Shown here: piece by piece, positions 1 through 63,898 of the stretch
Layout: each line of letters starts with the position of its first letter
Numbering within the stretch: the first letter of the stretch is position 1
IMG/VR virus record: IMGVR_UViG_3300032093_014924
Origin: a virus
Lineage: Duplodnaviria; Heunggongvirae; Uroviricota; Caudoviricetes
Length of the DNA: 64,000 nt
Strand: one strand, 5' to 3'
The notes under the pieces: generated by a model
Databases searched by the model: none
Seen by the model: the letters and a program-made list of their open reading frames with translations, nothing else
Told to the model about the DNA's origin: nothing
Translations under genes and position numbers: made by a program

Positions 1-534
1 TCTAACCCATAATGGAGATTGTGTTACATCATCACCATAATATGAATTATTTTTACCAATATTAAAATTATAAACATTTGGTTTATATTTTAAATAATCA
101 TTCAAATCTTCTTCTATTTTTTCTAAATTAACCCCATATTTTTTTATAAATGTTTCATACCAAGTTTTTGTGATACCAGCATGACTGAAGACAAAATCAT
201 TATATTTATAACAGATATTAAGATAGTTTTTGTTAAATGCCTTATCTAACATTTCTTCTATCCTATATCTATATATGTGTTGATAACCACTATATTTTTC
301 GTATATGTTTTTCATATAATGGAAATCGTGATTACCTATCAATAAAATAACCTTATCTTCATTCTCTTCTTTAAATTTAATTAAATCTTTAAAGTTAGCA
401 TCTTGATGCTCATATGGAATATTAAAAGAATCAAAATAATCACCAATAAATACATATTTATCTGCGGATTCTTTTTTTACAATATCCAACCATACACCTC
501 TGCCATGCAAATCACCAATTACAACTATTTTCAT
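1..534 (-). CDS. Metallophosphoesterase / Ser-Thr phosphatase-like protein; partial, the 3' end runs off the window
   Basis: Minus-strand translation from the ATG at 532-534 reads MKIVVIGDLHGRG...FIGDYFD...LLIGNHDFHY, the calcineurin-like GDxHG/GDxxD/GNHD signature. Promoter motif directly upstream. Confidence 0.7.
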   Translation of the reverse strand, partial: MKIVVIGDLHGRGVWLDIVKKESADKYVFIGDYFDSFNIPYEHQDANFKDLIKFKEENEDKVILLIGNHDFHYMKNIYEKYSGYQHIYRYRIEEMLDKAFNKNYLNICYKYNDFVFSHAGITKTWYETFIKKYGVNLEKIEEDLNDYLKYKPNVYNFNIGKNNSYYGDDVTQSPLWVR

Positions 535-556
535 AATACAAATATACTAATAAAAT
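535..556 (-). promoter_or_regulatory. conserved upstream motif instance (TTAGTATATTTGTATT-ATG)
   Basis: Reverse complement of aatacaaatatactaataaaat directly 5' of the ATG at 532-534. Confidence 0.55.
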
Positions 557-836: not shown

Positions 837-1114
837 AAAGCACCTAATGTGGCTGAACCAGGTAAAACAATAAGTTTACCAAACATTGTTTCATATTTAT
901 TTCTATTAACAATATATGATATAAACATATAATATACAAAAAAATTTATGAATACCGCTAAATCATTGTTTTTGCTAATAAAAACAACTATCGAATTACC
1001 AAAAAACCCCCAAAGAAAATTAATAAGAGTTTCCTTAATTAATTCTATTGGTGATGTTATGGCATCAAATAACTTTATTTTATTTGTTAATATCTTTCTA
1101 CCCTTTTCTTTCAA
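791..1114 (-). CDS. hypothetical membrane protein
   Basis: 107-aa ORF with hydrophobic segments on the dominant strand. Confidence 0.35.
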   Translation of the reverse strand: MKEKGRKILTNKIKLFDAITSPIELIKETLINFLWGFFGNSIVVFISKNNDLAVFINFFVYYMFISYIVNRNKYETMFGKLIVLPGSATLGAFCGYKLAQYISIYVL

Positions 1115-1632
1115 CTTAAAATAACATTTATATTAAAATCTTTTATATTACCATTGATAATGTTTTCTTTCCCCCAAGCCTCAAACTTAGGAATGTGTTC
1201 AAGCCTGTCATCCCACATCTCAACATACTCAACATTTTCGTATTTCTTAATTAACTTATCCAAAATACTTAATTTAAATTTATCTGTACTACCACCATCA
1301 TTATAGTAATATTCATCAAAATGTAAATCATGTTTATCCAGAATCTTTTCAACATCACCAGACAACTTTTTAATCCTACCAGTCAGCAACACTACCAATA
1401 TTTTATCATTACCATAGTTCTCTTTGTAATCATCCACGACTTTTTTGTTAACATCAATATCAAATATTTCATCGTCAAGTGATTCTTTTCGACCCCACCA
1501 ACCACTATGTGGCCAATCTTTACCAGTTTTGTTTTTATACTCAATTTTACCATCTTCAGGTAATGGAGTATACGCAATGGTTTGGTCAAAATCAAAAACA
1601 GCAATCTTTTTTATATTTTCTACTTTCTTCAT
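1111..1632 (-). CDS. HAD-superfamily hydrolase (phosphatase/nucleotidase-like)
   Basis: N-terminal VFDFDQTIAY = HAD motif I DxDxT. ATGA start overlaps the downstream gene. Confidence 0.5.
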   Translation of the reverse strand: MKKVENIKKIAVFDFDQTIAYTPLPEDGKIEYKNKTGKDWPHSGWWGRKESLDDEIFDIDVNKKVVDDYKENYGNDKILVVLLTGRIKKLSGDVEKILDKHDLHFDEYYYNDGGSTDKFKLSILDKLIKKYENVEYVEMWDDRLEHIPKFEAWGKENIINGNIKDFNINVILS

Positions 1633-1684
1633 TTTTTTTATCTAAATTTAAGCTTATGTACACAAAAGTGTACATTTTCTTTTA

Positions 1685-2182
1685 CTATTTTGTTTTAGGT
1701 CTTATTATCGTAAACATTTTTTTACCATCTAATTTTGGCATAAATTCTGCTGTTGATACATTTTCTAATTTAACCAATAGATTAAGAAACAATGTTTTTG
1801 CGTTATCTATGTAATTCATTTCTCTACCCCTAAATTCCATAGTTATTTTAACTTTATGACCTTTATTTATAAAATCAATAATATGATTTATACGGTAATT
1901 TAAATCATTTTCAGAAATATTCGGACCTATTTTTATTTCTTTTAAATCTATTTTTTTAGGTTTATTGTTTTTATTTTGTTCATATAAAAATTTTTCATAT
2001 TTAAGTAATTTACAAAAACCAATATTATCATTGTTATCAATGTTAAAAAGAACTAAGTCCATATTTTGGGTATTAGCCAAAGATAGAGCCTCAGTTAATG
2101 ATATAACACCAATTTCTGGTAATCTTACTTGAGAAACTTTTATTTCTTCATTAATTAAATGTTTTTTTTCTTTGTTTTTCAT
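1685..2182 (-). CDS. infC: Translation initiation factor IF-3
   Basis: 165 aa. INEEIKVSQVRL, GVISLTEAL, DLVLF, KYEKFLYEQNK, KEIKIGPNISENDL and FRGREM align along the whole length with bacterial IF3 (GIVSLxEAL...DLV...YGKFxYE...KEIKxRP...FRGRE). Confidence 0.85.
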   Translation of the reverse strand: MKNKEKKHLINEEIKVSQVRLPEIGVISLTEALSLANTQNMDLVLFNIDNNDNIGFCKLLKYEKFLYEQNKNNKPKKIDLKEIKIGPNISENDLNYRINHIIDFINKGHKVKITMEFRGREMNYIDNAKTLFLNLLVKLENVSTAEFMPKLDGKKMFTIIRPKTK

Positions 2183-2388
2183 TATTTCAATTCAATAATA
2201 TAATTATCACTATTAAATAAATTTTTAGATATCGTATAACCTTTTTTATTAACTAAAAATATTAATTCATCTAATATTTCTTGGTTTACACCATTAATAT
2301 AAACTCTTTTAAGTTTATTATTAACCGATGTGTTAATAAATTGTTCAATCTTATCTATTGAAATATCATCTTTTATGTTTAATTCCAT
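2182..2388 (-). CDS. hypothetical protein
   Basis: 68-aa ORF abutting infC on the dominant strand. Confidence 0.4.
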   Translation of the reverse strand: MELNIKDDISIDKIEQFINTSVNNKLKRVYINGVNQEILDELIFLVNKKGYTISKNLFNSDNYIIELK

Positions 2389-4022: not shown

Positions 4023-4388
4023 TTATTTTATTTTTTTCCATTCACGAATATGGTATTTAGTTTTATATCGACCATATTCAATCTTACCAAGATAAAGTAT
4101 TATATCTAAGGCCATTGGTAATTCACTATATAATTTATCCCATTCAGCAATCTGTTCTTCTGTATATACAATATCACCAGTATCGTTTAATGGGTCAAAA
4201 TTAGTTGGTTTACCATTCAAGATTAAATCAATAGCATAATACAAATCATCTTCGCCAAATGGTGGTATAACTTCATCAAATTCATTTGTTGAAATACCGT
4301 TTATTATTTTGTCTTTACCTAAACTCCAATTAAGGTTTTTAAGTAATTTAACATGCTCTTCTTTTAACTCAAATTTTAATACACTCAT
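4023..4388 (-). CDS. hypothetical protein
   Basis: 121-aa ORF with ATGA overlap to the upstream gene. Confidence 0.4.
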   Translation of the reverse strand: MSVLKFELKEEHVKLLKNLNWSLGKDKIINGISTNEFDEVIPPFGEDDLYYAIDLILNGKPTNFDPLNDTGDIVYTEEQIAEWDKLYSELPMALDIILYLGKIEYGRYKTKYHIREWKKIK

Positions 4389-4699
4389 AGTTTATCATTT
4401 TTTTTAGTCGGGTCATACCATAAATATGTGGCTGTTAATTCTTCACCATCATTTATGTCTTTAATTGTCGCCAATTTTAAAAAGTCACCATCATATAAGA
4501 CAATACAATTGGGTTCGTCAGAATGGTTAAAAAAGGCCCCTAACGGTGTTCTAATATAACCATCTTCAAATCTAATATCTCTAACATGTGTTATACCGAG
4601 TATAACATTTTTTGGTATGTCATTCGTAGCGAATAATCCAAGTCCATCAATATTAGATGATTTAACAGTTAAAAACTCTGGTAATGGTCTATAATTCAT
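4385..4699 (-). CDS. SET-domain protein (putative lysine methyltransferase)
   Basis: 104 aa with GLGLFATNDIPKN, FFNHSDEPNC and GEELTATY, the SET core motifs GxG/NHSxxPN/ELTxxY. Size resembles minimal viral/bacterial SET proteins. Confidence 0.65.
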   Translation of the reverse strand: MNYRPLPEFLTVKSSNIDGLGLFATNDIPKNVILGITHVRDIRFEDGYIRTPLGAFFNHSDEPNCIVLYDGDFLKLATIKDINDGEELTATYLWYDPTKKNDKL

Positions 4700-4700
4700 A

Positions 4701-5993
4701 TTATCCTTTCACAACACCAAAACCAATGTTATCTCTTTCAGCCTCTATTTGAGAATGATAAAAACCTTTATAAGATTCTTTTATTAACTGAAGCGTATCT
4801 TCTAGACTCCACTCTACATTATCTATGGTCATATCTTTTATATTCTCAGACAAGTTATAAATAAACGCACCAGTTATTTTAGTCTTCTTACCATTTATTT
4901 TACCAGTGAGTAAATTATAAACTTCTTTAACTCTCCACTTTTCAGGTAAATAAAGTTCACATACTTTTCTTATTTGCTCATCTGTTAAGAAACCATAATC
5001 AATAATGAAATTAAATCTACCTGGTCTTTCAGCTGCTTTATCAACTAATTTTTTATCATTTGTTGACGCAATAAAACTTATTTTTTGTTTTTTAATACCA
5101 TCAAATATTGTTAAGAATTCACCCAAATTTTGAGTATAACCTCCAGTATCTCTTGACCCAATGAACAAATCAATATCATCCATTATGATAACAGCTTTGT
5201 CGAAGATATTACATGTTTCAATGATTGTTGCCAAATCAGACCCATCAACAAAATCTGGGATAATGAAAGTAGAATTAGGTAATAATTTTTTAGCTATTTC
5301 TCTAATTGTTTTAGTTTTACCTGTTCCTGGTTCACCATTCAACAAATATCTTAAATTACCACCTCTAGACACCACATTAACAAAATGGTCAATGAATTTG
5401 TTTTGAGTGTCATTTAACACTAGTAAATCATTATCACTATCATTGGTTTCAATTATTTCAATACCATGAAATGATGATTCATAAAATTTAACTTTAATTA
5501 CTTTGCCAACATATTTTGAAGAATTAAACGCTACCTTTTTCAATTTTTGAAAAATGTTATTAATTTCTTCATCCTTTATTTTCTTGTTTGTTGATATGTT
5601 TAAAAAACATTCAAAATCACCTCTACTGTTAACATATGCTCTAGTTTGAAAAATTAATAGATAATCATATTCTTTTAATTTACCCATAAACCAAAATGAT
5701 TCAGTATCTTCATGAACACCACCTTGTTCTAATTGTCCAATGTGATTAACTTTACCATATGTCATTACATTAACATCACTTTTATTTTTATTATCTTTAA
5801 AGCAAGATAATAAATATGAATTTATTACTGATAACTCAATAAAAGAAATTTTTTCTACTATTTGATTAACATTTGATAATCCATCGTCTGCGTCATCATC
5901 AATCCCAAGATTAAGTTTACTCATCTCATAAACCTCATGAGGCATGTCAAAATATTCGTCAATACTTCTGGTTTTAATTTTACCTTTTTTCAT
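4701..5993 (-). CDS. AAA+ ATPase
   Basis: Walker A LLNGEPGTGKTK and Walker B IIMDDIDLF. 430 aa. Confidence 0.7.
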   Translation of the reverse strand: MKKGKIKTRSIDEYFDMPHEVYEMSKLNLGIDDDADDGLSNVNQIVEKISFIELSVINSYLLSCFKDNKNKSDVNVMTYGKVNHIGQLEQGGVHEDTESFWFMGKLKEYDYLLIFQTRAYVNSRGDFECFLNISTNKKIKDEEINNIFQKLKKVAFNSSKYVGKVIKVKFYESSFHGIEIIETNDSDNDLLVLNDTQNKFIDHFVNVVSRGGNLRYLLNGEPGTGKTKTIREIAKKLLPNSTFIIPDFVDGSDLATIIETCNIFDKAVIIMDDIDLFIGSRDTGGYTQNLGEFLTIFDGIKKQKISFIASTNDKKLVDKAAERPGRFNFIIDYGFLTDEQIRKVCELYLPEKWRVKEVYNLLTGKINGKKTKITGAFIYNLSENIKDMTIDNVEWSLEDTLQLIKESYKGFYHSQIEAERDNIGFGVVKG

Positions 5994-6003: not shown

Positions 6004-6429
6004 TTAAATTAATTCTTTAATTACACTACTTACTAAATTATTATCAAAGTTTTTACCTTTATTCTCCTTATTGAATTTACCAATTAGGAAACCAGAATTT
6101 TTATTATCCCCAGATTGTATATAATCACTAATTATAGACCTAATTTCATTTTCTGTCATTGGTTTAGGTAAATAATCTTGTAAATAACTTAATTCCGTTT
6201 CATCATCAGATGACGATACATTTATTTTCTTTTTGTTTTCTATTGTCTCTTTAAGGTTTTTCTCAATAATCTTTAAAACCTTTAAAACATTTTCATCTGT
6301 TGATTCGATTAACTTTTTTTCTTGTGTTTCAATAGATGCTTTTAACAAACCTAAAAAGTTTTTCTTACCCATGTTTTTTTCTTTAAACGCTTGGATAAAA
6401 TCTTTACTGATTCTTTCTTTTATTAACAT
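6004..6429 (-). CDS. GatB/YqeY-like domain protein (tentative)
   Basis: 141-aa helical protein whose pattern resembles YqeY/GatB C-terminal domains. Weak. Confidence 0.35.
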   Translation of the reverse strand: MLIKERISKDFIQAFKEKNMGKKNFLGLLKASIETQEKKLIESTDENVLKVLKIIEKNLKETIENKKKINVSSSDDETELSYLQDYLPKPMTENEIRSIISDYIQSGDNKNSGFLIGKFNKENKGKNFDNNLVSSVIKELI

Positions 6430-6488
6430 ATTTTTTTAGTTACTTAATGCAAAGATACATAATATTTGCAAGCAAAACAAGTTTTTTT

Positions 6489-6698: not shown

Positions 6699-6933
6699 TT
6701 AATTTATTCAAATGAAAAATAGATGCCTTAATCAAATCATCTTTATCGTGATAACTATTATCATCAGCCAATTTAATTAACATACATAGTGTTTCACAAA
6801 CGCATGTTATGTCGTCCAAAATAATTTTTTTAGCTTCTTCTTTAGTTTCTGGTTGTTTGAAATCATCTGGTTTACCTATTTTTACAGGTATATCCCTTTC
6901 AGTGTCAATATCAATTATAAGTGTGTTTTTCAT
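6682..6933 (-). CDS. hypothetical protein
   Basis: 83-aa ORF. Promoter-motif variant GTAACAAATGTACTAAA directly upstream. Confidence 0.4.
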   Translation of the reverse strand: MKNTLIIDIDTERDIPVKIGKPDDFKQPETKEEAKKIILDDITCVCETLCMLIKLADDNSYHDKDDLIKASIFHLNKLNEKNV

Positions 6934-7033
6934 GTAACAAATGTACTAAATATATATAACAAAAAAAAGAAAAAACTATAAAAAATTATATTATTATTGA
7001 TATTTCAATAAAAAAAATATTATTTATTTTTAT

Positions 7034-9281: not shown

Positions 9282-9545
9282 TTATAGCTTTTTGCCCAAA
9301 TTAATAATTAATTCTTCTTCATCAGTTGATAATCTATGTTTGTTTTCAGATAATTTTAACAAAGCATTATAATAATCGCTATTTTCATACAAAGTAAGCT
9401 TTGACGTTAATACGCCATCTTTAATTATAACTGATTCATCTACATAACCATCTTCTTTTAGACATTTTAACAAATAATCGTAATCACGACTGTTCATTGC
9501 TGATAAAAAATCATCAATATCAATTTCAATTTCAACTGTTCTCAT
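9282..9545 (-). CDS. hypothetical protein
   Basis: 87-aa ORF on the dominant strand. Confidence 0.35.
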   Translation of the reverse strand: MRTVEIEIDIDDFLSAMNSRDYDYLLKCLKEDGYVDESVIIKDGVLTSKLTLYENSDYYNALLKLSENKHRLSTDEEELIINLGKKL

Positions 9546-10098
9546 ATTTTTCTTCTAATCTATTTAATTCTTCTCTTAATATTTCTTTGCTACTACCAGA
9601 ACTATATTTTGTTTCTGGGTCTAATTCTTTTATTCTATCAGCCAAATCTTTTCTTAAACCTTTATTATAAAATTCTGATTCTATCGCATTTGCTAAAAAC
9701 CAAGATTGTTTATCACCAGTTATTGATATTCTTAAATCATACCATTCCCATTTTGTCTTATAATCATAAATCATAAAACCTTTTGTTAATTTTCTATGTA
9801 AATTATATAACGTAAAGTTACGAACCCTTACAATAGAATTATCGTTACCAAATAAATGTAATAATCTAAGAAACCATCTAGGACACCATTTTGGCCTAGC
9901 CTTGTAATCCATAAAAATGACCAAAGGTTCCAATGCCTTAAACAACTCGTCTTTTTCATTCCAAGGTACAGAACCTAAATAAGAATATTTAGCATGAAAT
10001 GTTTTAGGGAAAAAAACGTTAATAATATGTAATATAGATATATCAATTGTATGAATCATACCTTTTTTTCGCCCTTTAAATAAAATTATGTCTTTCAT
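9532..10098 (-). CDS. hypothetical protein
   Basis: 188-aa ORF with the promoter motif abutting the ATG. Confidence 0.45.
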   Translation of the reverse strand: MKDIILFKGRKKGMIHTIDISILHIINVFFPKTFHAKYSYLGSVPWNEKDELFKALEPLVIFMDYKARPKWCPRWFLRLLHLFGNDNSIVRVRNFTLYNLHRKLTKGFMIYDYKTKWEWYDLRISITGDKQSWFLANAIESEFYNKGLRKDLADRIKELDPETKYSSGSSKEILREELNRLEEKYENS

Positions 10099-10120
10099 AT
10101 TACAAATATACTATTAAAAT
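10099..10120 (-). promoter_or_regulatory. conserved upstream motif instance
   Basis: attacaaatatactattaaaat abutting the ATG of 9532-10098. Confidence 0.55.
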
Positions 10121-19173: not shown

Positions 19174-19384
19174 AATATTCTACTGGTTCAAAAACATAAA
19201 AAACATTTCCATCTGAATCAACATCTCTTATTATTTGCATTTTATGTGCCATTTCAATCATCTCTTGCCTTTGTATTTTATACGCTTGTTCAATCAAATC
19301 CATAGAATCCGTTTTCAAAGCGTTAGAAAATCTTTTAGGTAAGTTTTCTAATAAAAAATCTAAACCTGTTTGTTTATTTTTCAT
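19139..19384 (-). CDS. hypothetical protein
   Basis: 81-aa ORF with the promoter motif abutting the ATG. Confidence 0.4.
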   Translation of the reverse strand: MKNKQTGLDFLLENLPKRFSNALKTDSMDLIEQAYKIQRQEMIEMAHKMQIIRDVDSDGNVFYVFEPVEYYEQTYGKENNS

Positions 19385-19405
19385 AATACAAAGATACTAA
19401 TAAAA
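19385..19405 (-). promoter_or_regulatory. conserved upstream motif instance
   Basis: aatacaaagatactaataaaa abutting the ATG of 19139-19384. Confidence 0.55.
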
Positions 19406-19432: not shown

Positions 19433-19578
19433 CAGTCAGGACAGGATTCGAACCTGTATGTAAACCTTTTATCAACTTACCTTTACCAAAGCGTTTCTGC
19501 GCAACCTACTTTGGATTTATGTTGGTAATTTACTCGTAAGTATAATTGCGTAGCGTCTACCAATTTCGCCACCTGACT
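19433..19578 (-). tRNA. long tRNA-like gene, type-II (Leu-like) acceptor/D/T arms with a roughly 60-nt extra insertion
   Basis: Minus strand reads AGTCAGG-TG-GCGA-AATTGGTAGA-CGC ... ACAGG-TTCGAAT-CCTGT-CCTGACT-G. The perfect 7-bp acceptor stem, canonical D and T arms and a GCGCAGAAACGC variable-arm-like hairpin support a tRNA. Total length is about 146 nt. Confidence 0.5.
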
Positions 19579-19961: not shown

Positions 19962-20702
19962 TTAAGCTGAAACTTCTTTTTTATTATTTAATAATTGATT
20001 AAATTCTTTTTGTCCATTAATTACTTTTTTAATAATCTCTTCAAATTTAATCTTACTAACGTTAATATTAAATTCAATATCATTACCTATACCAATCATA
20101 GTGGCAAAACAATCATGCTTAAATGTTAATGGGTTGAAATTAAAATAAATACCTTCGTTTTTAAAGTAATTTGATTGATATCCAATTTGGAAACTTCTAT
20201 ATAATGTTGTTTCATCACCACTAGTTGATGTAATAACACGATTAACTAATCCGTTATTTACCATTATCGGCATTAATTTAAAAAGCTTTTTATTAAATTT
20301 TGTTACCTCTTCAAAATAATTATTAGCGTAATTCAAATAAAAATATTCATCAGTTATTATATTTAAAACAACATGGAAATATTTTAATTCATTTCTAATT
20401 AATTCAATACATGGGTATTCTGGTTTTGAATAACCCATAGTTGAATAAGCTATAGATTTATCTATTTCAAATGTAACATTTTCTACTTTAACATTATCTA
20501 ATAATTCACCACCATTTTGGTAATCTAATTCGGTTCCTTCTGGGAAATCTTTTTCTTTTGGGTTGTGGCCAAAAGATATATCTATAGACCCTTCAATATT
20601 GTTATTCCGAAAATGAACCATATCCAAAACAGAATCTGTTTGTATTGCATATACATTAAAATTCTTAGATAGTAATGCTTTTCTTATTTCTCCGTATTTC
20701 AT
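19962..20702 (-). CDS. hypothetical protein
   Basis: 246-aa ORF with the promoter motif abutting the ATG. Confidence 0.45.
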   Translation of the reverse strand: MKYGEIRKALLSKNFNVYAIQTDSVLDMVHFRNNNIEGSIDISFGHNPKEKDFPEGTELDYQNGGELLDNVKVENVTFEIDKSIAYSTMGYSKPEYPCIELIRNELKYFHVVLNIITDEYFYLNYANNYFEEVTKFNKKLFKLMPIMVNNGLVNRVITSTSGDETTLYRSFQIGYQSNYFKNEGIYFNFNPLTFKHDCFATMIGIGNDIEFNINVSKIKFEEIIKKVINGQKEFNQLLNNKKEVSA

Positions 20703-20724
20703 ATTACAAAGATACTAATAATTT
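20703..20724 (-). promoter_or_regulatory. conserved upstream motif instance
   Basis: attacaaagatactaataattt abutting the ATG of 19962-20702. Confidence 0.55.
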
Positions 20725-23947: not shown

Positions 23948-25299
23948 CATAAGTCTTTAGCTTATGTGATATAAGCACTACAAAAATACAAATAAATAAA
24001 CAAATAAACAAATAAATATTTTTTTTTCTTAAAATATGTCTTTTTTAATATTATCATATATTTATCATATATAGAGTTAATCTGATAAATAATGTTAAAA
24101 TCATATAAATATAAACTTAAACCAACTAATGAACAAATTGTTTTATTGAATAAACACTTTGGTTCAATTAGGTTTATATATAATTATTTTTTAAATGAAA
24201 GAAAACATGAATATGAAACAAACAAAAACTCAATTAATTATTATGATAACGCTAAATCATTAACTGAATTAAAAAAACAAGATAATTATTCATGGTTAAA
24301 AGAAATTAATTCACAATCATTACAGGATTCATTAAAAAATTTAGAAACAGCTTATAAGAATTTTTTTAGATTCAAAAAAGGTTTTCCTAAATTTAAATCT
24401 AAACACGATAAAAATAGTTTTACAATACCTCAATTTGTTAAATTAAATAAAAATGAATTATCTATACCTAAATTTAAAGACCCTATTAAAGTCATTATAG
24501 ATAGAAAATTTAATGGTTTAATTAAACAATGTACTATTTCAAAAACACCAACAAATGAATATTTTGTATCTATTTTGGTTGAAACTGAACATAATAAATT
24601 ACCAAAAACTAACAAATCTGTTGGTATTGATTTAGGTATTAAAGAGTTTGTTATAACATCTGATGGTTATAAATATAAAAATAATAGATACACAAAAACA
24701 TACGCTAAAAAACTTAAAGAACATCAACAACATTTAAGCAGAAAAATAAAAGGTAGTAACAGATATAATAAACAAAAATTAAAAGTGGCCACTATTCATA
24801 AGAAGATAACCAATTCTAGAATAGATAATCTACATAAAATATCCACAGATTTAATTAAAAAATATGATTTAATTGTATTGGAAGATTTAAATATTAAGGG
24901 TATGGTTAAAAATCATAAATTATCTAAACATATTTTAGATGTTTCATGGGGAAAATTTGTAACAATGTTACGTTATAAATCTGAATGGAATGATAAAAAA
25001 ATAGTTAACATAGATAGGTTTTTTCCTAGTAGTAAAACATGTAATTGTTGTGGTTATATTAATCAAAATTTAAAATTAAATATTAGAGAATGGGTTTGCC
25101 CATCATGTAATACTAAATTAGATAGAGATTTAAACGCAAGCATAAATATCCTTAAAGAAGGAAATAAGATATTATCGTCAGGAACTGACGATTACAGACG
25201 TGGAGATGAAATAAGACCAACATCCGTTGGCACAATCGGTGAAACGTCTAAAATTCTTAACAATATTGTTAAGAAACCCATTGGTCTTTAGCCAATGGG
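23948..25299 (+). mobile_element. IS200/IS605-family (IS1341-like) TnpB-only insertion element
   Basis: The only large plus-strand gene in its neighbourhood. Flanked by two related hairpins with an identical TCTTTAG loop: CATAAG-TCTTTAG-CTTATG at 23948-23966 and CCCATTGG-TCTTTAG-CCAATGGG at 25277-25299. Confidence 0.6.
24092..25291 (+). CDS. tnpB: TnpB (OrfB_IS605) RNA-guided endonuclease-family transposase accessory protein
   Basis: N-terminal YKYKLKPTNEQ, central RuvC-like region, and C-terminal CNCCGY...CPSCNTKLDRDLNASINI zinc ribbon + RuvC-III signature. Confidence 0.85.
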   Translation: MLKSYKYKLKPTNEQIVLLNKHFGSIRFIYNYFLNERKHEYETNKNSINYYDNAKSLTELKKQDNYSWLKEINSQSLQDSLKNLETAYKNFFRFKKGFPKFKSKHDKNSFTIPQFVKLNKNELSIPKFKDPIKVIIDRKFNGLIKQCTISKTPTNEYFVSILVETEHNKLPKTNKSVGIDLGIKEFVITSDGYKYKNNRYTKTYAKKLKEHQQHLSRKIKGSNRYNKQKLKVATIHKKITNSRIDNLHKISTDLIKKYDLIVLEDLNIKGMVKNHKLSKHILDVSWGKFVTMLRYKSEWNDKKIVNIDRFFPSSKTCNCCGYINQNLKLNIREWVCPSCNTKLDRDLNASINILKEGNKILSSGTDDYRRGDEIRPTSVGTIGETSKILNNIVKKPIGL

Positions 25300-26660: not shown

Positions 26661-26966
26661 TTAATTATCTTTAAAGTTTTGTTCTTCGCCATCTAAATTA
26701 TTAAAATATTTTAGTATCTCTGAAATTCTTATGTTTTTTTCTTCAAGGTCATCCATAATCCTTTTTGCAGCATACATTGATGAAATTAACCCATATTCTT
26801 CGACATCTTTTTCATCTAACATAACACCAGCGATAAATATTAATAAACTACCAGCTTTATTAACACAATAATCACCAGTTTCATGGCTTTCTTTACATAA
26901 AGAAGTTCCCATTTCAAATAATTTTGAGCTTATTTCGGCTCTACGTTCTAACATATTATTTTCCAT
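26661..26966 (-). CDS. hypothetical protein
   Basis: 101-aa ORF with the promoter motif abutting the ATG. Confidence 0.4.
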   Translation of the reverse strand: MENNMLERRAEISSKLFEMGTSLCKESHETGDYCVNKAGSLLIFIAGVMLDEKDVEEYGLISSMYAAKRIMDDLEEKNIRISEILKYFNNLDGEEQNFKDN

Positions 26967-26988
26967 ACTACAAAGGTACTAATAATTT
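26967..26988 (-). promoter_or_regulatory. conserved upstream motif instance
   Basis: actacaaaggtactaataattt abutting the ATG of 26661-26966. Confidence 0.5.
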
Positions 26989-32402: not shown

Positions 32403-32588
32403 TTAAAATTGTTTTAAATAAAATTTGATTGTTTTGTATAAGGCTATCATTAATACTCCGCTAGCCAATGCGGATAAAAGAACTAAATAATCTGAACTTG
32501 AAGAAAAACCTTCTAAAATTAAAGTCCAAATCATAAACACAACTACCAATAAAATTGGTATGGATGACATTAAATATATTTTTTTCAT
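32403..32588 (-). CDS. small membrane protein
   Basis: 61 aa with two hydrophobic helices. Promoter motif abuts the ATG. Confidence 0.4.
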   Translation of the reverse strand: MKKIYLMSSIPILLVVVFMIWTLILEGFSSSSDYLVLLSALASGVLMIALYKTIKFYLKQF

Positions 32589-32610
32589 AATACAAAGTTA
32601 CTAATTATTT
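32589..32610 (-). promoter_or_regulatory. conserved upstream motif instance
   Basis: aatacaaagttactaattattt abutting the ATG of 32403-32588. Confidence 0.5.
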
Positions 32611-34112: not shown

Positions 34113-34123
34113 ATGTTTAATTG

Positions 34124-34197
34124 TGGGCCTCACAGGACTTGAACCTGTAACCCCTTGATTATGAGTCAAGTGCTCTAACCGCTTGAGCTAGAGGCCC
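34124..34197 (-). tRNA. tRNA-Met/Ile2 (CAU anticodon)
   Basis: GGGCCTC-TA-GCTC-AAGCGGTTAGA-GCAC-TTGAC-TCATAAT-CAAGG-GGTT-ACAGG-TTCAAGT-CCTGT-GAGGCCC-A gives a clean cloverleaf. Promoter motif at about 34204-34225 immediately upstream. Confidence 0.8.
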
Positions 34198-36268: not shown

Positions 36269-37183
36269 TTATTTAATTGTTTTTTTAAAGTTATCTGTTT
36301 CTAACGATGTTATTTTATTACCAAGTTCTTGACTAGGTTTAAGATTAAATTTATCCATTACTTCTTGTGAATTAACAGACAATTCAAAATCTATAAAAGC
36401 ATCAACTAACTTTTTATCTAAATTATTTATTTGACCGAATTTTTTTATTTGTTCATCATTCAATGTTATATTTTTTTGCATCTTTTTTAATGCTACGGCT
36501 GTATCAATACTTATATTTAAAAAACTAAGTAAAAATTGAATGTTTCTTATCTCATCAATAGTGTATCTTAATTCATTTAATTTGTTACCAATGTTTTTAG
36601 GGTTATTTAATTTTAATAAAGTTGATATTGTTATGATATAATCATCTGTTAAGTTTTTGAAATTCTTATTAATATTAAGTTTAGGAAAAATCCAATCAAA
36701 TAAATTATATCTATCTATTAAAGATAGAAAGAAAGAAACATTTTTAGCTGATTTAATTCCTTTAATAAATTCATCTTTTACTCTCTCAGCAGATATACCT
36801 TCTAAACTAGCATCTTTTTGTAATGCTTCATCTGTTTGTTGGTCTATATCACTATCTAATCTGGCTGAGAATCTTAGAACTCTTAAAATCCTAAGTCTAT
36901 CTTCATTGAATCTATCTTCTGGTTTACCAACGGTTCTAATCACACCATTTTTTATATCTTCAATACCACCAACAAGGTCAACAATTTCTTTATTTTTAAT
37001 ATCGTAAAATAAAGCATTTATTGTTATATCTCTTCTTAGCACATCTTGATATATATCTGTGAATTCGACTGAATCTGGTCTTCTTTTATCAGCTAAAGTT
37101 TTTTCATAATCTTCAAATTCTTTTTTAAAGAATTCTTTAGCTATTTGTTCCCAATTTTCCATTTTAATTATTTTAATTTCCAT
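36269..37183 (-). CDS. CCA-adding tRNA nucleotidyltransferase, C-terminal portion (neck/body), separate ORF
   Basis: ADKRRPDSVEFTDIYQDVLRRDITINALFYD = the conserved RRD(F/I)TINA motif that follows the head domain. Begins with its own ATG overlapping the end of the GIY-YIG gene. Confidence 0.7.
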   Translation of the reverse strand: MEIKIIKMENWEQIAKEFFKKEFEDYEKTLADKRRPDSVEFTDIYQDVLRRDITINALFYDIKNKEIVDLVGGIEDIKNGVIRTVGKPEDRFNEDRLRILRVLRFSARLDSDIDQQTDEALQKDASLEGISAERVKDEFIKGIKSAKNVSFFLSLIDRYNLFDWIFPKLNINKNFKNLTDDYIITISTLLKLNNPKNIGNKLNELRYTIDEIRNIQFLLSFLNISIDTAVALKKMQKNITLNDEQIKKFGQINNLDKKLVDAFIDFELSVNSQEVMDKFNLKPSQELGNKITSLETDNFKKTIK

Positions 37184-37875
37184 TTATAACCACCACACTT
37201 ATTTCTATTACCATTTATTACCGACCAAATATTGCCTTGACTCAACCCTAATTCTTTTGCTGCTGCTGTTGCACTAACCCATTCTTTAATTAATTCACTA
37301 TCTTTAGATAATTGTAATACTGGTGTTGCGTTCCAAGACAAAGTACCTTTTTTGGTTTCTGATATTTGTTTTTTAGTCTCTTCGCTGTGTTTATTACCAG
37401 TATTTCTACCAGGTTTACCAATTAATGATTGACTTATTTTTTCTCTTGTTATATTACTAACCTCCCTATTTTTATTGTTTTGACTGATTTTATTCCTATA
37501 CTCTAACGACCTTATGTGACCAGAAACACCATCGCCTCCATTGGTAAGGTTGGTTAATGGACCATTTTTTAAATCATTCCTACCAATAACTAATATTAAT
37601 TTTTTTTCTAACTCGAAAGCATCAACTTCAAATATATTTTCACTAATTTTTAAAATTATTGGTTTTAAACCAATATTTATTATTTTATTAATTTTTCTAA
37701 TTTTATATGTGTTATTATCACACTTCATCCTATTAGGGTTTAAGTGTTCTAAGCATCTTTTGTAACATCCCTTTCCAACATAAAATGGTTCATATTCAAA
37801 TTTATAATCACCATATGTAAATTCACCTTTTTTTCTTGGGTCTAGGTAAACATAGACATAATATTTTGATTCCAT
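37168..37875 (-). CDS. GIY-YIG homing endonuclease inserted within the CCA-enzyme gene
   Basis: YVYVYLDPRKKGEF...FYVGKGCYKRCLEHLN = GIY-YIG module, with C-terminal NUMOD-like basic repeats. Located between the two halves of the CCA enzyme. Confidence 0.75.
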   Translation of the reverse strand: MESKYYVYVYLDPRKKGEFTYGDYKFEYEPFYVGKGCYKRCLEHLNPNRMKCDNNTYKIRKINKIINIGLKPIILKISENIFEVDAFELEKKLILVIGRNDLKNGPLTNLTNGGDGVSGHIRSLEYRNKISQNNKNREVSNITREKISQSLIGKPGRNTGNKHSEETKKQISETKKGTLSWNATPVLQLSKDSELIKEWVSATAAAKELGLSQGNIWSVINGNRNKCGGYKWKLK

Positions 37876-37919: not shown

Positions 37920-39485
37920 CTATTTCATTAATTTAGTTAAAAATTTTTCGTAACTACCATTATTTAAACGTTTTAAATAATCTTTAAACCCTTCTAAATC
38001 ATAACCTTTATATTGGTCTATTCTGAATGTGGCTATTTCATATTCATCACTATCTGTTATAACATTAATGACACCAAATGCTTTTCCTGTTGCTATTGTT
38101 TTATAACCGTTTTCTTGTAATATGTTTTCAATATCATCTGGTTTAGCATTTGTTGCTAAATCATAATCTTTTGGTTCTTTATTTAGTAAAACATCCCTTA
38201 CTGAACCACCAACAAGATATAAATCATAACCATTCTTAACAAAAATATCTTTAATATCTATTATGTCCTTTGGTAAGTTAATATCATATTTAATTCTTAT
38301 TTCAGATGAAGTATTTAATTTATTTTCGTTTTCGGTAAAAAATTGTTTATATTCATCATCTTCTTTCACGTTATTTAATAAACGTTCTTCTTCATCATTT
38401 AATGGTCTATTTATGTTTTTTAAAATCAATTCTTGATGTTTTTCATCATACTTCCAAAAATCTTCTAAAATATCTTCTAATATAGTTACATCATTTACTT
38501 TAATGTTTTCATCATAAATTAATTTAATATAACCATCATCAATCATTTTTTTAACCATTTTATAATGTGGTAATTTTTCTAATAAACCATTCTTAAATTT
38601 AATTGGTAATGAATTATAATAAACTTTTTTTAAGTTTTCATCTAACTCATCTAATTGATAAGGTTCAAAATAATATTCAAAATTTTTTATATAAATTATT
38701 TTTTCATTATTTTTTAATTTATTAAAAAAATCAATACTTAATTTATCACCAGCTAAAGCATCTGAACGCATATTTGGGAAATTAGTTATCACATCACGTT
38801 TTATTTTACAAAATAGTTCTGGGTTTTTAACTTCTACTGGATTAGACGATAGTTTAGATAAATCATATATAACAGACCCGTGTAATGTATTATCATACCC
38901 ATCTATACCGCTAACATTAACACCATTAAAACCATTGTACTCCATTATTCTTGTTGACATGGATGCTAAATTGGTTTTGTTCTTCATGTCATTTGCGGCT
39001 TCTTTAACCATATTTATATATTCACGATATTTTGGAATATTTAAACCTAGGTATTGTGCATTATTTATTATTTTTAAATAAATAATTTTGAATTTGTTAT
39101 CCATTTCAAATTTGCTATCATAAACTCTAACAACTAAATAAAAACTTTCATTTATTAGTTTTAATGTTTTAAATAACATTTCAGCATGGTCTGGTGATTT
39201 AACCCTAAATAAATTTTTATAAATATCAAAATCAACACGATAAATATTATCTTTTATTTTAGTTAATTCTTTTTTTGAGTTATCGGAATCATCAAAATTT
39301 TCACAACTATAAGTAGAAAAATAAAGACCAGAACCAAAATGCCCAGTTCCACGACCTTGCATACGAAATAAATTATCTGAACCATATGGTCTTATATTTT
39401 CTACATTTTCTATATCACCTTTATGGTAATTAAATTCCGTTTCGTTTAATAAGTTTCTTAATTTGAATTTAATATAGTTTTTCAT
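37920..39485 (-). CDS. Unknown about 400-aa N-terminal domain fused to the CCA-adding enzyme head domain (N-terminal half of the split nucleotidyltransferase)
   Basis: C-terminal 90 aa YDLYLVGGSVRDVLLNKEPKDYDLATNAKPDD...GKAFGVINV...EYEIATFRIDQY = class-II polymerase-beta head domain (GGxVRD, DxD, ATFR). The ORF stops immediately after. Confidence 0.7.
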   Translation of the reverse strand: MKNYIKFKLRNLLNETEFNYHKGDIENVENIRPYGSDNLFRMQGRGTGHFGSGLYFSTYSCENFDDSDNSKKELTKIKDNIYRVDFDIYKNLFRVKSPDHAEMLFKTLKLINESFYLVVRVYDSKFEMDNKFKIIYLKIINNAQYLGLNIPKYREYINMVKEAANDMKNKTNLASMSTRIMEYNGFNGVNVSGIDGYDNTLHGSVIYDLSKLSSNPVEVKNPELFCKIKRDVITNFPNMRSDALAGDKLSIDFFNKLKNNEKIIYIKNFEYYFEPYQLDELDENLKKVYYNSLPIKFKNGLLEKLPHYKMVKKMIDDGYIKLIYDENIKVNDVTILEDILEDFWKYDEKHQELILKNINRPLNDEEERLLNNVKEDDEYKQFFTENENKLNTSSEIRIKYDINLPKDIIDIKDIFVKNGYDLYLVGGSVRDVLLNKEPKDYDLATNAKPDDIENILQENGYKTIATGKAFGVINVITDSDEYEIATFRIDQYKGYDLEGFKDYLKRLNNGSYEKFLTKLMK

Positions 39486-39519: not shown

Positions 39520-40407
39520 TTAACAACCAAAAAAATCTTTTAAATCTTCATTTTTTTTAAGGTCTCTTATCGCAAACTCTATTATTTTTTTAATTCTTAT
39601 AGTTGTCATATTATACTCTTCTGACATTTGTTTAATTGTTAATTGTTTATAGTCATACAAACCATAATAATGACAAATAATAACTCTACTTATAGGGTTT
39701 AAAGAATATATTACCTTTTTTAATACTTCGTTTGATTCTTTTTCTTCACTATCTACTTCAAAATCATTGTGTTTGAATAAATAATCATTTTCTTCAGTTA
39801 TTAATGATTTAGTAACAACACTAGATTTAATAGCCATCAATACACTATTTTTTATTCTATCTGTACCAATATCAGAATTATTAATAACATATTCGTAATC
39901 AAGTTCATGACCACATTCTTTCTCCATTTTTGCTTTCAAATTATTTATTATTTTAATTTTAGGCATAATGTTTGAAGATATGTTAGCTACATATAAATTT
40001 TCATTTAAAAACAATAAAATTCTTTTTCTTATATGCCAAATAGCATATGAAATAAATTTATTATCTGAATCTGTTTTGAATTGTTCAATAGCTTCACTTA
40101 AGCCAATATTGCCCTCACATATCAATTCTTCAACACCAATATCACCACTGGTTATTTTTTTAGCATATGTTCTTGCAACAGAAACAACAAATAAAAGATT
40201 ATGATTTATTATTTTATCTTTTATTTTTTTTCTGTCTAATTCATCAGTTGTCTCAGACAACTTTATGAATAGTTCTTTTTCTTCTTCTTTGGTTAAAGGT
40301 TTAAGCTTTTCAATTTGACTGTAATAAGCTTTTAAAGATTCTTTAGATAATGTGTTTACAAAAAAATCATCATTACCAAGTCTTTTTTTACCGAAATCTG
40401 TTATCAT
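39520..40407 (-). CDS. Sigma-70 family RNA polymerase sigma factor
   Basis: Region 2 FISYAIWHIRKRI and region 4 LTIKQMSEEYNMTTIRIKKIIEFAIRDLKK. Confidence 0.7.
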   Translation of the reverse strand: MITDFGKKRLGNDDFFVNTLSKESLKAYYSQIEKLKPLTKEEEKELFIKLSETTDELDRKKIKDKIINHNLLFVVSVARTYAKKITSGDIGVEELICEGNIGLSEAIEQFKTDSDNKFISYAIWHIRKRILLFLNENLYVANISSNIMPKIKIINNLKAKMEKECGHELDYEYVINNSDIGTDRIKNSVLMAIKSSVVTKSLITEENDYLFKHNDFEVDSEEKESNEVLKKVIYSLNPISRVIICHYYGLYDYKQLTIKQMSEEYNMTTIRIKKIIEFAIRDLKKNEDLKDFFGC

Positions 40408-41386: not shown

Positions 41387-41489
41387 GTTGTTAGGACAGG
41401 ATTCGAACCTGTACGCAGTATCTTAATTACAGGCTCTTTTCACGATACTGCCGAGCCATGCGTGCGTCTACCAATTCCGCCACCTAACT
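41387..41489 (-). tRNA. long type-II tRNA-like gene (Leu-like), about 103 nt
   Basis: AGTTAGG-TG-GCGG-AATTGGTAGA-CGC ... ACAGG-TTCGAAT-CCTGT-CCTAACA-A. The middle 50 nt contains a 9-bp stem CGCAGTATC/GATACTGCG. Confidence 0.45.
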
Positions 41490-41757
41490 TCCACCCCACC
41501 TTGAGATTACTGGTGAGTAGATGTATCGGTTTTCTTTCTTTCAATAAACCTGTGGGTCTTACCCTCTTAAAATTAGTCAAACTACTTGGAGCCTCTGTTA
41601 CCTAGCTTTATTCCAAAGAGACTGGCGTTTTATAGAGCTATAACCAGTTTCTACCAAAATGTGATAGTCTTCTTTATAGATATTAGGATGTCCAGTCTAA
41701 TACCCTATTCATTGTTTAAGTCTTGAATTAAAGACTCTGAGTATCTCTTACTCATTG

Positions 41758-41843
41758 TAGTTAGAGTGGGGGTCGAACCCACAAGGGCGTTTCTGCCCAC
41801 AAGATTTTAAGTCTTGCATGTTTTCCTATTTCATCATCTAACC
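41758..41843 (-). tRNA. tRNA-Leu(UAA)
   Basis: GGTTAGA-TG-ATG-AAATAGGAAAA-CAT-G-CAAGA-CTTAAAA-TCTTG-TGGGCAGAAACGCCCTTG-TGGG..TTCGACC-CCCAC-TCTAACT-A. Anticodon UAA, long variable arm, canonical T loop. Confidence 0.7.
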
Positions 41844-42257: not shown

Positions 42258-42500
42258 TTATGTAATTATTTGATTATTAACCAATTTAAAATCTACTTTA
42301 GGTTTAAGTTCTGTTAAAACAACTATTATTTGTTGTTTTTCTATTTTTGAAATATCATAAATTACATTAACCACTTCGTAATATATATCATTAAAGAAAA
42401 GTAATTCATTTTTTTTAGGAATAACATTCATTTGGATATCATTTTTTAAAATCTTCCAATTTACATCTATAAACCTTATATTATTTTTTTTCTTAAACAT
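42258..42500 (-). CDS. hypothetical protein
   Basis: 80-aa ORF. Confidence 0.35.
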   Translation of the reverse strand: MFKKKNNIRFIDVNWKILKNDIQMNVIPKKNELLFFNDIYYEVVNVIYDISKIEKQQIIVVLTELKPKVDFKLVNNQIIT

Positions 42501-42625
42501 AAGTCAAATTTACTACATTTTTTTAATTAATGAACGATATTTATTAATAAATAACATTTAGCTAAATAATTTAAATCATGAAAAATCAAGTAAGAGAATG
42601 TGGTTGTAAAAAATAACCATGTATT

Positions 42626-42964: not shown

Positions 42965-43317
42965 TTGTAAGGTTTTTAGTGGAGCGAGTCGGAGTTGCAC
43001 CAACGTGTTGGTTATTCTTCAATACCTTTCTACATGTTTATAATGGTTTTCTAACCATTCAAAATACATCAAATTTGTTAAGTTCTCTGATTAGAAACTA
43101 ATGGACTACCATTATGTTGTAGAAAATACTACAATTAAGTAAGTTATTACTATCAGCGATATCAGGCTACCGCAAGCTCTCCAGCGAAGCTACATGTAAC
43201 TTCGTTAAGGAAATTTTCAGAAACAACTAAATCGTTGCCATTTGTTTGTTTTGATAGGGTATTTAAGTGTTTCCATCTAACACTACATGCTTAATACTTA
43301 CGACTATAACCAGTCGA
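42965..43317 (-). ncRNA. ssrA: tmRNA (SsrA)
   Basis: Minus-strand 5' end GGGGCGAUAUUAGAAUCGACUGG... is near-identical in pattern to the bacterial SsrA 5' end GGGGCUGAUUCUGGAUUCGACGGG. The 3' end ...GGUGCAACUCCGACUCGCUCCA is the T-arm-like + acceptor strand pairing with GGGGCGA. A candidate internal tag ORF ...FAGELAVA-UGA ends with a typical hydrophobic (A/L/V)A tag. Promoter motif about 14-19 nt upstream. Confidence 0.8.
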
Positions 43318-43330
43318 TTCTAATATCGCC

Positions 43331-43350
43331 CCATTGTTTTAATAATTATT
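43331..43350 (-). promoter_or_regulatory. conserved upstream motif instance upstream of tmRNA
   Basis: ttattacaaatatactaaaa about 14 nt 5' of the GGGG start of ssrA. Confidence 0.5.
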
Positions 43351-43933: not shown

Positions 43934-44650
43934 TTATTTTTTTCTACTTATTACCGAATCAATAATACCATATTTAAGTGCTTCATCAGCATTCAACCAA
44001 AGGTCCCTGTCAGCATCTTTCATAACTTGTTTTGCAGTTTTGTTTGTGTACTCACCAAGCAACCCAAATAATATTTCATTATATTTCTCAGTTTCAGCAA
44101 TTGTTAATCGCATGTCTTGAATAGTACCCCCCATTGAAGAAGAAACTTGGTGTAGCATAACTCTACTGAAACTTAAACTATACCTTTTACCTTTGGTTCC
44201 AGCACCTAATAATACACTACCCATACTAGCGGCCATACCTGTGTTTATAGTGACGATATCAGAAGATATATAACCAATAACATCAACAATTGATAAACCA
44301 CTTTTAACGCTACCACCAGGTGTATCAATATGTAGAGTAATATCTTTTGTTTCCATATTATCAAGAAACATTAATTGTGCTTGAACAACCGTGCTCATCC
44401 TATCGTTAACTGGTCCAGCTAACCATATAATCCTATCCATCATCATTCTATCAAACACTGACATTAGTGTTGCTCTGAATTCTCTTTCTTCCAAAATCAT
44501 CGGTGATAAAGAACCAAATACATTTACATTTGAATAAATGTTTTCTTGCAGTTTTTCCCAATAATATAGTTGCATACTGCTTATGCCCATGTGTTTTGTT
44601 GCATAAGATTTGAATTCTTCATGCATACCAGTGTCTACTAAATTTTCCAT
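43934..44650 (-). CDS. clpP: ATP-dependent Clp protease proteolytic subunit ClpP
   Basis: DRIIWLAGPVND...TPGGSV...NTGMAASMGSVLLGAG...MLHQ gives a full-length match to the ClpP fold, with a catalytic Ser (GMAASMGS) and His (LHQ). Confidence 0.85.
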   Translation of the reverse strand: MENLVDTGMHEEFKSYATKHMGISSMQLYYWEKLQENIYSNVNVFGSLSPMILEEREFRATLMSVFDRMMMDRIIWLAGPVNDRMSTVVQAQLMFLDNMETKDITLHIDTPGGSVKSGLSIVDVIGYISSDIVTINTGMAASMGSVLLGAGTKGKRYSLSFSRVMLHQVSSSMGGTIQDMRLTIAETEKYNEILFGLLGEYTNKTAKQVMKDADRDLWLNADEALKYGIIDSVISRKK

Positions 44651-54079: not shown

Positions 54080-54100
54080 ATAACAAATATACTAACTTTA
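54080..54100 (-). promoter_or_regulatory. conserved upstream motif instance
   Basis: taacaaatatactaactttaa abutting the ATG of 53852-54079. Confidence 0.5.
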
Positions 54101-63877: not shown

Positions 63878-63898
63878 AATACAAATATACTATTTTTT
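63878..63898 (-). promoter_or_regulatory. conserved upstream motif instance
   Basis: aatacaaatatactattttt abutting the ATG of 63323-63877. Confidence 0.55.

Follow-up and report, generated by a model that had tools for sequence, protein, structure and literature searches.

An IF3 homologue encoded by an uncultured jumbo phage with expression signals pointing to a Bacteroidota host

The 64,000-nucleotide stretch of DNA analysed here (the window), which comes from the Caudoviricetes virus record IMGVR_UViG_3300032093_014924 of IMG/VR, carries on its minus strand, at positions 1685..2182, an infC-like gene for a 165-residue homologue of translation initiation factor IF3. According to the list of open reading frames (ORFs) and the sequence itself, the reading frame is intact, running from an ATG at 2182-2180 to a stop codon at 1685-1687 with zero internal stops.

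The IF3 gene and its product

An earlier note on this DNA, which left the strand unstated, had described a full-length IF3 homologue and had staked that identification on a Pfam IF3_C match and on retention of the conserved 30S-binding residues. Both Pfam domains of IF3 were found in the ORF: IF3_C matched over its entire profile (1-86 of 86) with E=9.2e-26 and 90.1 bits (cutoff 34.8), and IF3_N matched with E=1.5e-14 and 54.4 bits (cutoff 26.9). The NCBIfam infC equivalog TIGR00168 aligned residues 5-165 with model positions 2-170 of 170 at 130.2 bits (cutoff 60), and PHROG 9787, annotated as 'translation initiation factor', matched over profile positions 2-167 of 168 (E=3.6e-31). When PDB sequences were searched with phmmer, IF3 chains came out on top (5me0_Y, 8e-25; E. 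coli 8jsg_A, 2e-23). The four hallmark segments to which the note had pointed are all present, slightly respelled, as IGVISLTEAL, YEKFLYE, KEIKIGP and FRGRE. The description as a full-length homologue is thus confirmed.

The N-terminal domain comprises residues 10-74 (1961..2155, minus strand; Pfam IF3_N), and the C-terminal, 30S-binding domain, covered by the full IF3_C profile, comprises residues 78-163 (1694..1951, minus strand). They are joined by a lysine-rich linker of 15 residues, YEQNKNNKPKKIDLK, which the aligned IF3 lengths place at residues 67-81 (1940..1984, minus strand). An AlphaFold2 model built from 34 family members had a mean pLDDT of 84, with a dip to 64 in the linker block. 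The modelled C domain superimposed on 1tig with a root-mean-square deviation of 1.5 A over 88 columns (TM 0.93) and the modelled N domain on 1tif with 2.0 A over 72 columns (TM 0.76), an agreement that, for a predicted structure, is far beyond chance. All 25 Foldseek matches of the model at E<=1e-3 were IF3, mitochondrial IF3 (mtIF3) or ribosome complexes containing them. The resemblance to mtIF3 (Foldseek matches 6rw4_8 and 6neq_z) is confined to the domain folds; the phage protein is without the mitochondrial N- and C-terminal extensions and reaches only 20.5 bits against Pfam mIF3 (cutoff 33.8), and so is not a member of that family.

To compare residues, we aligned 66 sequences of the clade to which the window protein belongs, 13 more distant viral IF3s, 80 cellular IF3s, a panel that is biased, and E. 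coli IF3. The positions that are invariant or nearly so in the cellular panel are all retained. In E. coli numbering, the phage protein keeps R25, Y75, K94, E95, D106, K123, K125, G132 and R133, and E. coli R66 is replaced by K, which is also the majority residue in cellular IF3s. The equivalents in the window protein (R20, K58, Y67, K81, E82, D93, K110, K112, G119 and R120) are invariant or nearly so over the 66 clade sequences. R25 is invariant among IF3s and, together with R66, touches the elbow of the initiator tRNA and aids start-codon fidelity (PMC9723500). The clade is marked by the substitutions Y107L (63/66), K110R (66/66), R129Q/E and R168K, and the sub-clade of the window by asparagine at 112 and 147 and aspartate at 116, positions at which cellular IF3s vary too. 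The loss of arginines that bind the 30S subunit was considered as a sign of a non-functional protein and rejected as such: most of the positions concerned vary in cellular IF3s, and the net charge of the C domain is normal (+4, cellular mean +4.2). The alignment with the 80 cellular IF3s gave no residue evidence of altered start-codon or tRNA discrimination.

The architecture of the protein differs from that of its cellular counterparts in two lengths, which were tabulated over 159 aligned IF3s. The N-domain hairpin (E. coli R25..G35) has 11 residues in 80/80 cellular sequences and 5-6 in 50 of the 66 clade members; in the window it consists of the 6 residues RLPEIG, and its shortening drops the equivalent of Q33, a contact to the tRNA elbow that is naturally variable in bacteria (PMC9723500). 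The linker between Y75 and K94 spans 15-17 residues in the clade (15 in the window) against 19-20 in cellular IF3s, and is thus 3-5 residues shorter. In the more distant viral IF3s, the hairpin has 9-13 residues and the linker 16-20, so that, among the aligned sequences, the short hairpin and linker appear specific to this clade. Judged from the alignment, the phage IF3 is compact yet otherwise orthodox.

Comparison with the orthologue on the related contig L131 (84% amino acid identity, dS 0.84) gave a dN/dS of 0.09, a value similar to those of neighbouring genes described below (A1-like, HAD and AAA), which indicates that the gene is under purifying selection. The 66 clade sequences, 45-85% identical, have the invariant IF3 positions in common, and homologues at 33-57% identity occur on IMG/VR viral contigs of up to 368 kb. 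Through a protein index, the identical protein was located in 54 blocks of the public collection, some of them on contigs of 0.2-1 Mb; exact look-ups of a gene-derived 24-mer in IMG/VR and JGI metagenome contigs gave zero matches. Among cultured and other GenBank phages, homologues were found in 75 records at 29-40% identity, including 121Q, PBECO4, Atu_ph07 and the LR7565xx huge phages; the hosts of IF3-carrying phages include E. coli, Salmonella, Erwinia and Vibrio. The closest cellular IF3s, sought in contigs of one genome per species, reached 40% identity and came from unrelated phyla, among others from Chlamydiia, Alphaproteobacteria, Clostridia and Caldithrix. When 1.84 billion cluster representatives were scanned with HMMER without filters, only 6 scored E<=1e-30, after which identity fell to ~40%; neither scan found a cellular IF3 above about 40-45% identity. 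Recent capture from a host was therefore rejected for want of a donor, the best cellular matches being 40% identical and scattered over phyla in a genome scan that was seeded with phage-derived peptide patterns, was biased for that reason, and returned zero Bacteroidota IF3s. Purifying selection, together with the lack of a near relative among cellular or GenBank phage IF3s, therefore argues that the gene is an old, vertically kept component of its clade and not a recent acquisition, although, given the bias of the genome scan, it may ultimately stem from a distant host.

Operon context and start codon of the IF3 gene

Immediately upstream of the IF3 gene lies a minus-strand ORF of 68 residues (2182..2388), whose TAA overlaps the IF3 ATG by 1 nucleotide (TAATG). 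In the related contigs L131 and L001, the orthologous junctions overlap as ATGA. The TAATG overlap fits translational coupling of IF3 to the 68-residue ORF, which itself evolves fast (55% amino acid identity and dN/dS 0.45 against L131). Further upstream, and likewise on the minus strand, follow genes for a protein like A1 of phage T5 (2391-4001; phrog_1745, 2e-147), a protein of 121 residues (4023-4388), a SET-domain protein that is possibly a protein methyltransferase (4385-4699), an AAA ATPase (4701-5993) and a YqeY-like protein (6004-6429), the assignments resting on Pfam and PHROG matches. These co-oriented genes are tightly packed between the IF3 gene and the nearest recognisable promoter, found in a motif scan as a -7 element, TATCTTTG, at 6450..6457 on the minus strand, 20 nucleotides from the ATG of the YqeY-like gene. 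The predicted leader is ~16 nucleotides long, and the intergenic sequence at this promoter is conserved in L131 and L001. IF3 thus stands roughly seventh in a long operon headed by genes of host-takeover type and, as an internal cistron, cannot itself be leaderless.

Downstream of IF3 lies a minus-strand gene for a HAD_SAK_1, or polynucleotide-kinase-like, phosphatase (1111..1632; PF10307, E=9.4e-16), which adjoins or is near IF3 in L001-L006 and L131-L134 as well. The order YqeY-AAA-SET-121 residues-A1-like-small ORF(s)-IF3-HAD_SAK is kept in L001, L131 and L132-134, and relatives with an IF3 of 73-84% identity share it. Ten nucleotides after the IF3 stop codon, a perfect 8-bp palindrome, ATGTACAC-TTTT-GTGTACAT (1656..1675, minus strand), would form an RNA hairpin of -11.3 kcal/mol with a fold z-score of -3.3. 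It is conserved in L131 and in L001, where the loop is AATT, despite an IF3 dS of ~0.8 to L131. There is no U-run on the gene strand at this palindrome, which might serve in RNA 3'-end formation or processing or bind a protein.

Cellular infC genes typically stand in the arrangement thrS-infC-rpmI-rplT. The neighbours of the window gene (the 68-residue ORF, A1-like and HAD_SAK) include no member of a ribosomal-protein or synthetase family. The start codon differs as well. All of the 43 viral IF3 genes compared start with ATG at the aligned position, many of them abutting an upstream stop codon, whereas by a crude automatic assignment at least 25 of the 80 cellular loci had no ATG, GTG or TTG near the aligned start, 23 of these having ATT, ATC, ATA or CTG. 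The near-cognate start of many cellular infC genes (AUU, AUA or AUC), for example AUU in E. coli and ATA in Flavobacterium johnsoniae, allows IF3 to repress its own synthesis (PMC7797042). Starting with ATG and apparently coupled to the upstream ORF, the phage IF3 should therefore escape autoregulation through the start codon.

Initiation signals and phage setting

Motifs resembling the Shine-Dalgarno (SD) sequence occur at or below background upstream of the 112 genes called in the window, and initiation led by SD was rejected on this ground. Positions -14 to -2 are rich in A, and 62% of the genes have A at -3. In Bacteroidota, A at -3 is a positive determinant of initiation (PMC6847099). The missing SD is better explained by a host of this type, because SD-independent initiation with A at -3 is normal there. 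Of the 96 same-strand gene junctions, 52 are at most 10 nucleotides long and 27 are overlaps; most genes are therefore internal cistrons, and 'SD-less' fits the genome better than 'leaderless'.

Promoters of the sigma-70 type (-35/-10) were not enriched (48 found against 56.9 in shuffles). The Bacteroidota-type promoter pattern TTTG-N17-21-TAnnTTTG, by comparison, had 21 occurrences where 5.9 were expected, 17 being on the gene strand, and TANNTTTGNNNNATG was found 12 times against 2.6 expected, a count that none of 100 shuffles reached. The extended, intergenic consensus is TAGTAhhTTTGTAwT (motif TAGTAHHTTTG), with the class spacing TTTG-N19-21-TAGTAhhTTTG. In 10 of the 24 extended motifs, an ATG stands exactly 4 nucleotides after the -7 element, and each such ATG opens an ORF of 61-246 residues or one that leaves the window. 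One of these predicted leaderless promoters, TATATTTG-TATT-ATG at 532..546, precedes a Metallophos gene that runs off the left edge and is followed by SmpB in identical contigs; the identity of the gene was taken from L132-134, and L131 has the same leaderless Metallophos-SmpB arrangement. Another, TATATTTG-TAAT-ATG at 10096..10110, opens the gene at 9532-10098. The remaining N4-ATG promoters from the motif scan lie at 6931-6945, 19382-19396, 20700-20714, 26964-26978, 32586-32600, 42498-42512, 54077-54091 and 63875-63889, and all of those named are on the minus strand.

The -7 element of F. johnsoniae spans -12 to -5, with 4-5 nucleotides from it to the transcription start site (TSS) (PMC6847099). 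Given that distance and the 4-nucleotide gap, the A of the AUG is therefore the predicted first nucleotide of the transcript. Leaderless mRNAs are thus predicted for roughly one in two of the recognisable transcription units that encode proteins and for ~9% of the genes (10/112), whereas in Bacteroides thetaiotaomicron 3.7% of 5' untranslated regions (UTRs) are shorter than 10 nucleotides and in Flavobacterium psychrophilum 5.5% of mRNAs are leaderless. The suggestion of the earlier note that the phage mRNAs appear leaderless is thus partly supported, by the lack of SD and by these predicted leaderless first cistrons; it does not extend to most genes, IF3 included, which are internal cistrons. 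Among IMG/VR relatives, the 4-nucleotide gap was found in 21 of 86 non-redundant extended motifs, 19 of the 21 opening ORFs of at least 85 residues, and with a shorter motif 50 occurrences, spread over 23 of 32 clade loci, were observed as compared with 18 from other spacings. No 4-nucleotide spike was seen in two Flavobacteriia control phages (elemoA and the jumbo phage PTm1, 50 kb of each), and we found no mention of this promoter class in the searchable literature. The viral contig L129 carries IF3 yet uses SD. Two sigma-70-family proteins with regions 2 and 4 are encoded in the window (39520-40407 and 62459-63298, minus strand), and a third lies left of it (L132 5853-); the host sigma-A may therefore be replaced or joined by a phage sigma factor in recognising the consensus TAGTAhhTTTGTAwT. 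The promoters, the lack of SD, the A at -3 and the matches of the A1-like protein, the best cultured ones being Flavobacterium phages, point to a host of Bacteroidota type.

The window has 26% GC and a coding density of 90%, and 104 of its 112 genes are on the minus strand. Genes of phage type include T5 A1-like, T4-type RNA ligases, GIY-YIG and HNH homing endonucleases and an ArdC-like gene; ClpP, DnaJ, thymidine kinase and the two sigma-70-family genes are also present. Family scans of the ORFs found no capsid or terminase gene in the 64 kb, as is expected because the window is a slice of a very large genome, and no IF1, bS21, S1 or ribosomal protein family in any scanned ORF. On the contigs with an identical IF3 (L132-134), a metallophosphatase, SmpB and the third sigma factor lie just past the left edge. 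That the gene is phage-encoded, as the earlier note had it, is borne out by the PHROG and Pfam assignments of its neighbours, by the long IMG/VR contigs of its relatives and by the very large contigs that carry the exact protein; the source is an uncultured jumbo-phage lineage.

Genes for translation and RNA repair in the window comprise a tmRNA, 3-5 tRNAs, a CCA-adding enzyme, two RNA ligases and PNK-like proteins. The tmRNA (42977-43332, minus strand) matched the full Rfam model RF00023 with 48.5 bits (gathering 47; E=4e-16) and was missed by ARAGORN. The promoter TAGTATATTTGTAAT lies just upstream, at ~43359; the 3' end reads ...CUCCACUA, not ...CCACCA, and the putative tag frame, read by eye, is GNDLVVSENFLNEVTCSFAGELAVA. 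Three standard tRNAs are accompanied by two odd tRNA-like genes (19433-19578 and 41388-41489, minus strand), which scored above the Rfam tRNA threshold (34.7 and 32.5 bits) and were both missed by ARAGORN. Each has an insertion of 37-41 nucleotides in the anticodon-arm region and a long extra arm, and their acceptor, D and T arms resemble those of the tRNA-Leu(TAA) at 41757-41843; they may be paralogues that contain introns or have decayed. A tRNA with anticodon CAT (34123-34197, minus strand) was considered as a phage initiator tRNA partnering IF3 and was ruled out by its G1-C72 pair and by an anticodon stem, CTTGA/TCAAG, without three G-C pairs, which identify it as an elongator of Met or Ile2 type. 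It may read AUA as an Ile2 (lysidine) tRNA, and with tRNA-Arg(TCT) and tRNA-Leu(TAA) it fits a set for AT-rich codons.

Several other genes on the minus strand deserve mention. The gene of the CCA-adding enzyme/poly(A) polymerase family seems to be split (36269-37183, 37168-37875 and 37920-39485): the PolyA_pol head matches both a 521-residue and a 304-residue ORF, and a GIY-YIG/NUMOD homing-endonuclease gene lies in between. A full DnaJ (47745-48737) and a ClpP protease (43934-44650, beside the tmRNA region) represent auxiliary functions, and a 476-residue protein (49919-51349) matches phrog_850, 'RNA-binding protein', and probably gave rise to the Pfam matches to DUF2828 and DUF7788 as well. 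One of the few plus-strand genes encodes a 399-residue transposase (24092-25291; phrog_506, E=3e-135), which suggests an insertion sequence inside the phage genome.

Possible roles of the phage IF3

We think it likely that the gene encodes a genuine, functional IF3 orthologue of an uncultured jumbo phage that has a genome of at least 200 kb and, judging by its expression signals, a Bacteroidota host. The identity, fold and core residues of the protein, the selection acting on it, the context and order of its genes and its start-codon usage follow directly from the comparisons above. During infection, the phage IF3 would bind the host 30S subunit through its C domain, keep the subunits apart and so maintain a pool of free subunits, speed the formation of the 30S initiation complex and proof-read that complex. 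It would thereby sustain and bias accurate AUG selection on phage mRNAs that are SD-less and mostly polycistronic. We infer that an unregulated phage copy, escaping the infC feedback, would raise total IF3; if active on host ribosomes, it should therefore shut down host infC, so that it would add to, and then progressively replace, the host factor to the benefit of the phage. IF3 would then form part of a translation-maintenance kit together with the tmRNA, the neighbouring SmpB, the tRNAs for AT-rich codons, the CCA-adding enzyme and the RNA ligases.

Several points weigh against this interpretation. The truncated N-domain hairpin and the shorter linker of the clade mean that the activity could depart from that of canonical IF3. 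The replacements R99G, R112N/K, R116D/E, R129E/Q, R147N/K and R168K affect basic C-domain positions implicated in 30S binding in E. coli, R99, R112, R116, R147 and R168 by mutagenesis, and most of these positions vary in cellular IF3s too. The start-codon comparison depends on the crude cellular tally, and the host was deduced from signals, the compared cellular IF3s including none from Bacteroidota. Finally, the Sharanji paper (PMC11895373) states that the role of IF3 in phages is unknown.

One could envision several other roles. The phage copy might be a spare part against host defence or stress, replacing host IF3 that has been depleted, be it through the shut-off of host transcription or through a defence directed at translation. 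The window and its continuation, with tmRNA, SmpB, tRNAs, CCA-adding enzyme, two RNA ligases and PNK-like proteins, resemble a kit for the repair and rescue of tRNAs and ribosomes, and such inventories of jumbo phages have been interpreted in this way (PMC7824862). This idea overlaps the function as a genuine IF3 rather than excluding it, and we regard it as rather unlikely to be the explanation in its own right. To our knowledge, IF3 is not the target of any defence system, and no such system was sought in this analysis. A different possibility is that the protein mimics IF3 for host shut-off, sitting as a dominant-negative decoy with defective or altered function on the IF3 site of the 30S subunit. 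The loss of the Q33-equivalent contact, the shorter linker, the replacement of basic C-domain positions in the sub-clade (N99, D103, E116 and N134, window numbering) and the operon shared with A1-like, AAA and SET genes could be read in this sense. However, the phage initiates on the same ribosomes and would be blocked by its own decoy, the protein keeps the conserved catalytic-core positions, a normal net charge and a high equivalog score, and Q33 varies naturally in bacteria, so that we consider such a role very improbable. There is next to no probability that the gene is a cellular infC on a bacterial or mis-binned contig. The window, it is true, contains no capsid or terminase gene, but the flanks of the gene match no ribosomal-protein or tRNA-synthetase family, unlike the cellular arrangement described above, its neighbours are of phage type and lie almost entirely on one strand, its relatives are on IMG/VR contigs, and cellular IF3s are no closer than the identity limit given above.

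The remaining alternative, which sharpens the suggestion of the earlier note of a modified start-site selection regime, is that the phage IF3 is a specialised variant that co-evolved with leaderless first cistrons and either tolerates or promotes 5'-AUG (70S-type) starts disfavoured by host IF3 or, on accumulating, turns leaderless mRNAs down as a temporal switch. The placement of the ATG at the predicted TSS in the window, in relatives and across clade loci, the lack of such a spike in the control phages, the leaderless baselines reported for B. thetaiotaomicron and F. psychrophilum and the distinctive short hairpin and linker are all compatible with it. In E. coli, moreover, IF3 has a dose effect on model leaderless mRNAs, low levels stimulating and high levels inhibiting (PMC9031893). 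On the other hand, this association is correlative only, with TSSs that are predicted and a control set of two 50-kb phages; a small share of the genes is predicted to be leaderless; and the discrimination residues (R25, and R66 as K) are conserved. Furthermore, phages infecting E. coli, Salmonella, Erwinia and Vibrio carry IF3, as does the SD-using viral contig L129, and a phage IF3 therefore needs no leaderless context. For these reasons, specialisation of the factor seems to us unlikely. Its most developed form, in which a compact, non-autoregulated IF3 co-evolved with a design in which some half of the recognisable promoters start the mRNA at the AUG, as a phage-made switch between 70S-type leaderless and 30S-type (SD-less, leadered or internal) initiation on Bacteroidota ribosomes, is likewise improbable.

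The interpretation as a genuine IF3 orthologue can be set against known systems. With bacterial IF3 (infC, TIGR00168), the phage protein shares the two-domain architecture, folds, core residues and basic C domain, and it scores at more than twice the equivalog cutoff. It differs in lying outside the infC operon context, in its coupled ATG in place of a near-cognate, autoregulating start, in the shortened hairpin (5-6 against 11 residues) and linker (15-17 against 19-20), in the clade substitutions Y107L, K110R, R129Q/E and R168K, and in an identity of no more than about 40-45% to the cellular IF3s found. Known phage IF3s (PHROG 9787; Escherichia 121Q and PBECO4, Agrobacterium Atu_ph07, LR7565xx) are likewise full-length and belong to very large genomes with tRNAs and genes for translation and RNA repair; the window IF3 is 29-40% identical to them and represents a separate, uncultured, AT-rich and SD-less clade with promoters of Bacteroidota type. 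Huge phages have been reported to encode IF1, IF3, tmRNA and SmpB (Al-Shayeb et al. 2020, PMC7162821), and IF3 has been recorded in group 2.2 jumbo phages (Iyer et al. 2021, PMC7824862). Phage-encoded IF3 is thus already described; what is new here is the clade-specific compact architecture, the universal ATG start with its regulatory implication, and the predicted leaderless promoter class.

The clade offers a clean case in which a conserved, presumably non-autoregulated IF3 under purifying selection occurs in an SD-less genome with an unusually high predicted share of leaderless first cistrons. In Bacteroidota, the likely host phylum, the role of IF3 is itself unsettled: the F. johnsoniae factor is anomalous in 30S complex formation, and an in vitro initiation system exists (PMC7797042). 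The dose effect of IF3 in E. coli makes extra, unregulated IF3 beside many leaderless cistrons an interesting juxtaposition. If IF3 does not influence those cistrons, the gene would be one more auxiliary translation gene of a jumbo phage. If it does, accumulating IF3 may act as a timer that turns leaderless cistrons down, or the compact IF3 may be permissive for 5'-AUG starts; a shift in the balance between leaderless and leadered mRNAs would show a virus reprogramming start-site selection, and the switch would be a virus-encoded temporal regulator.

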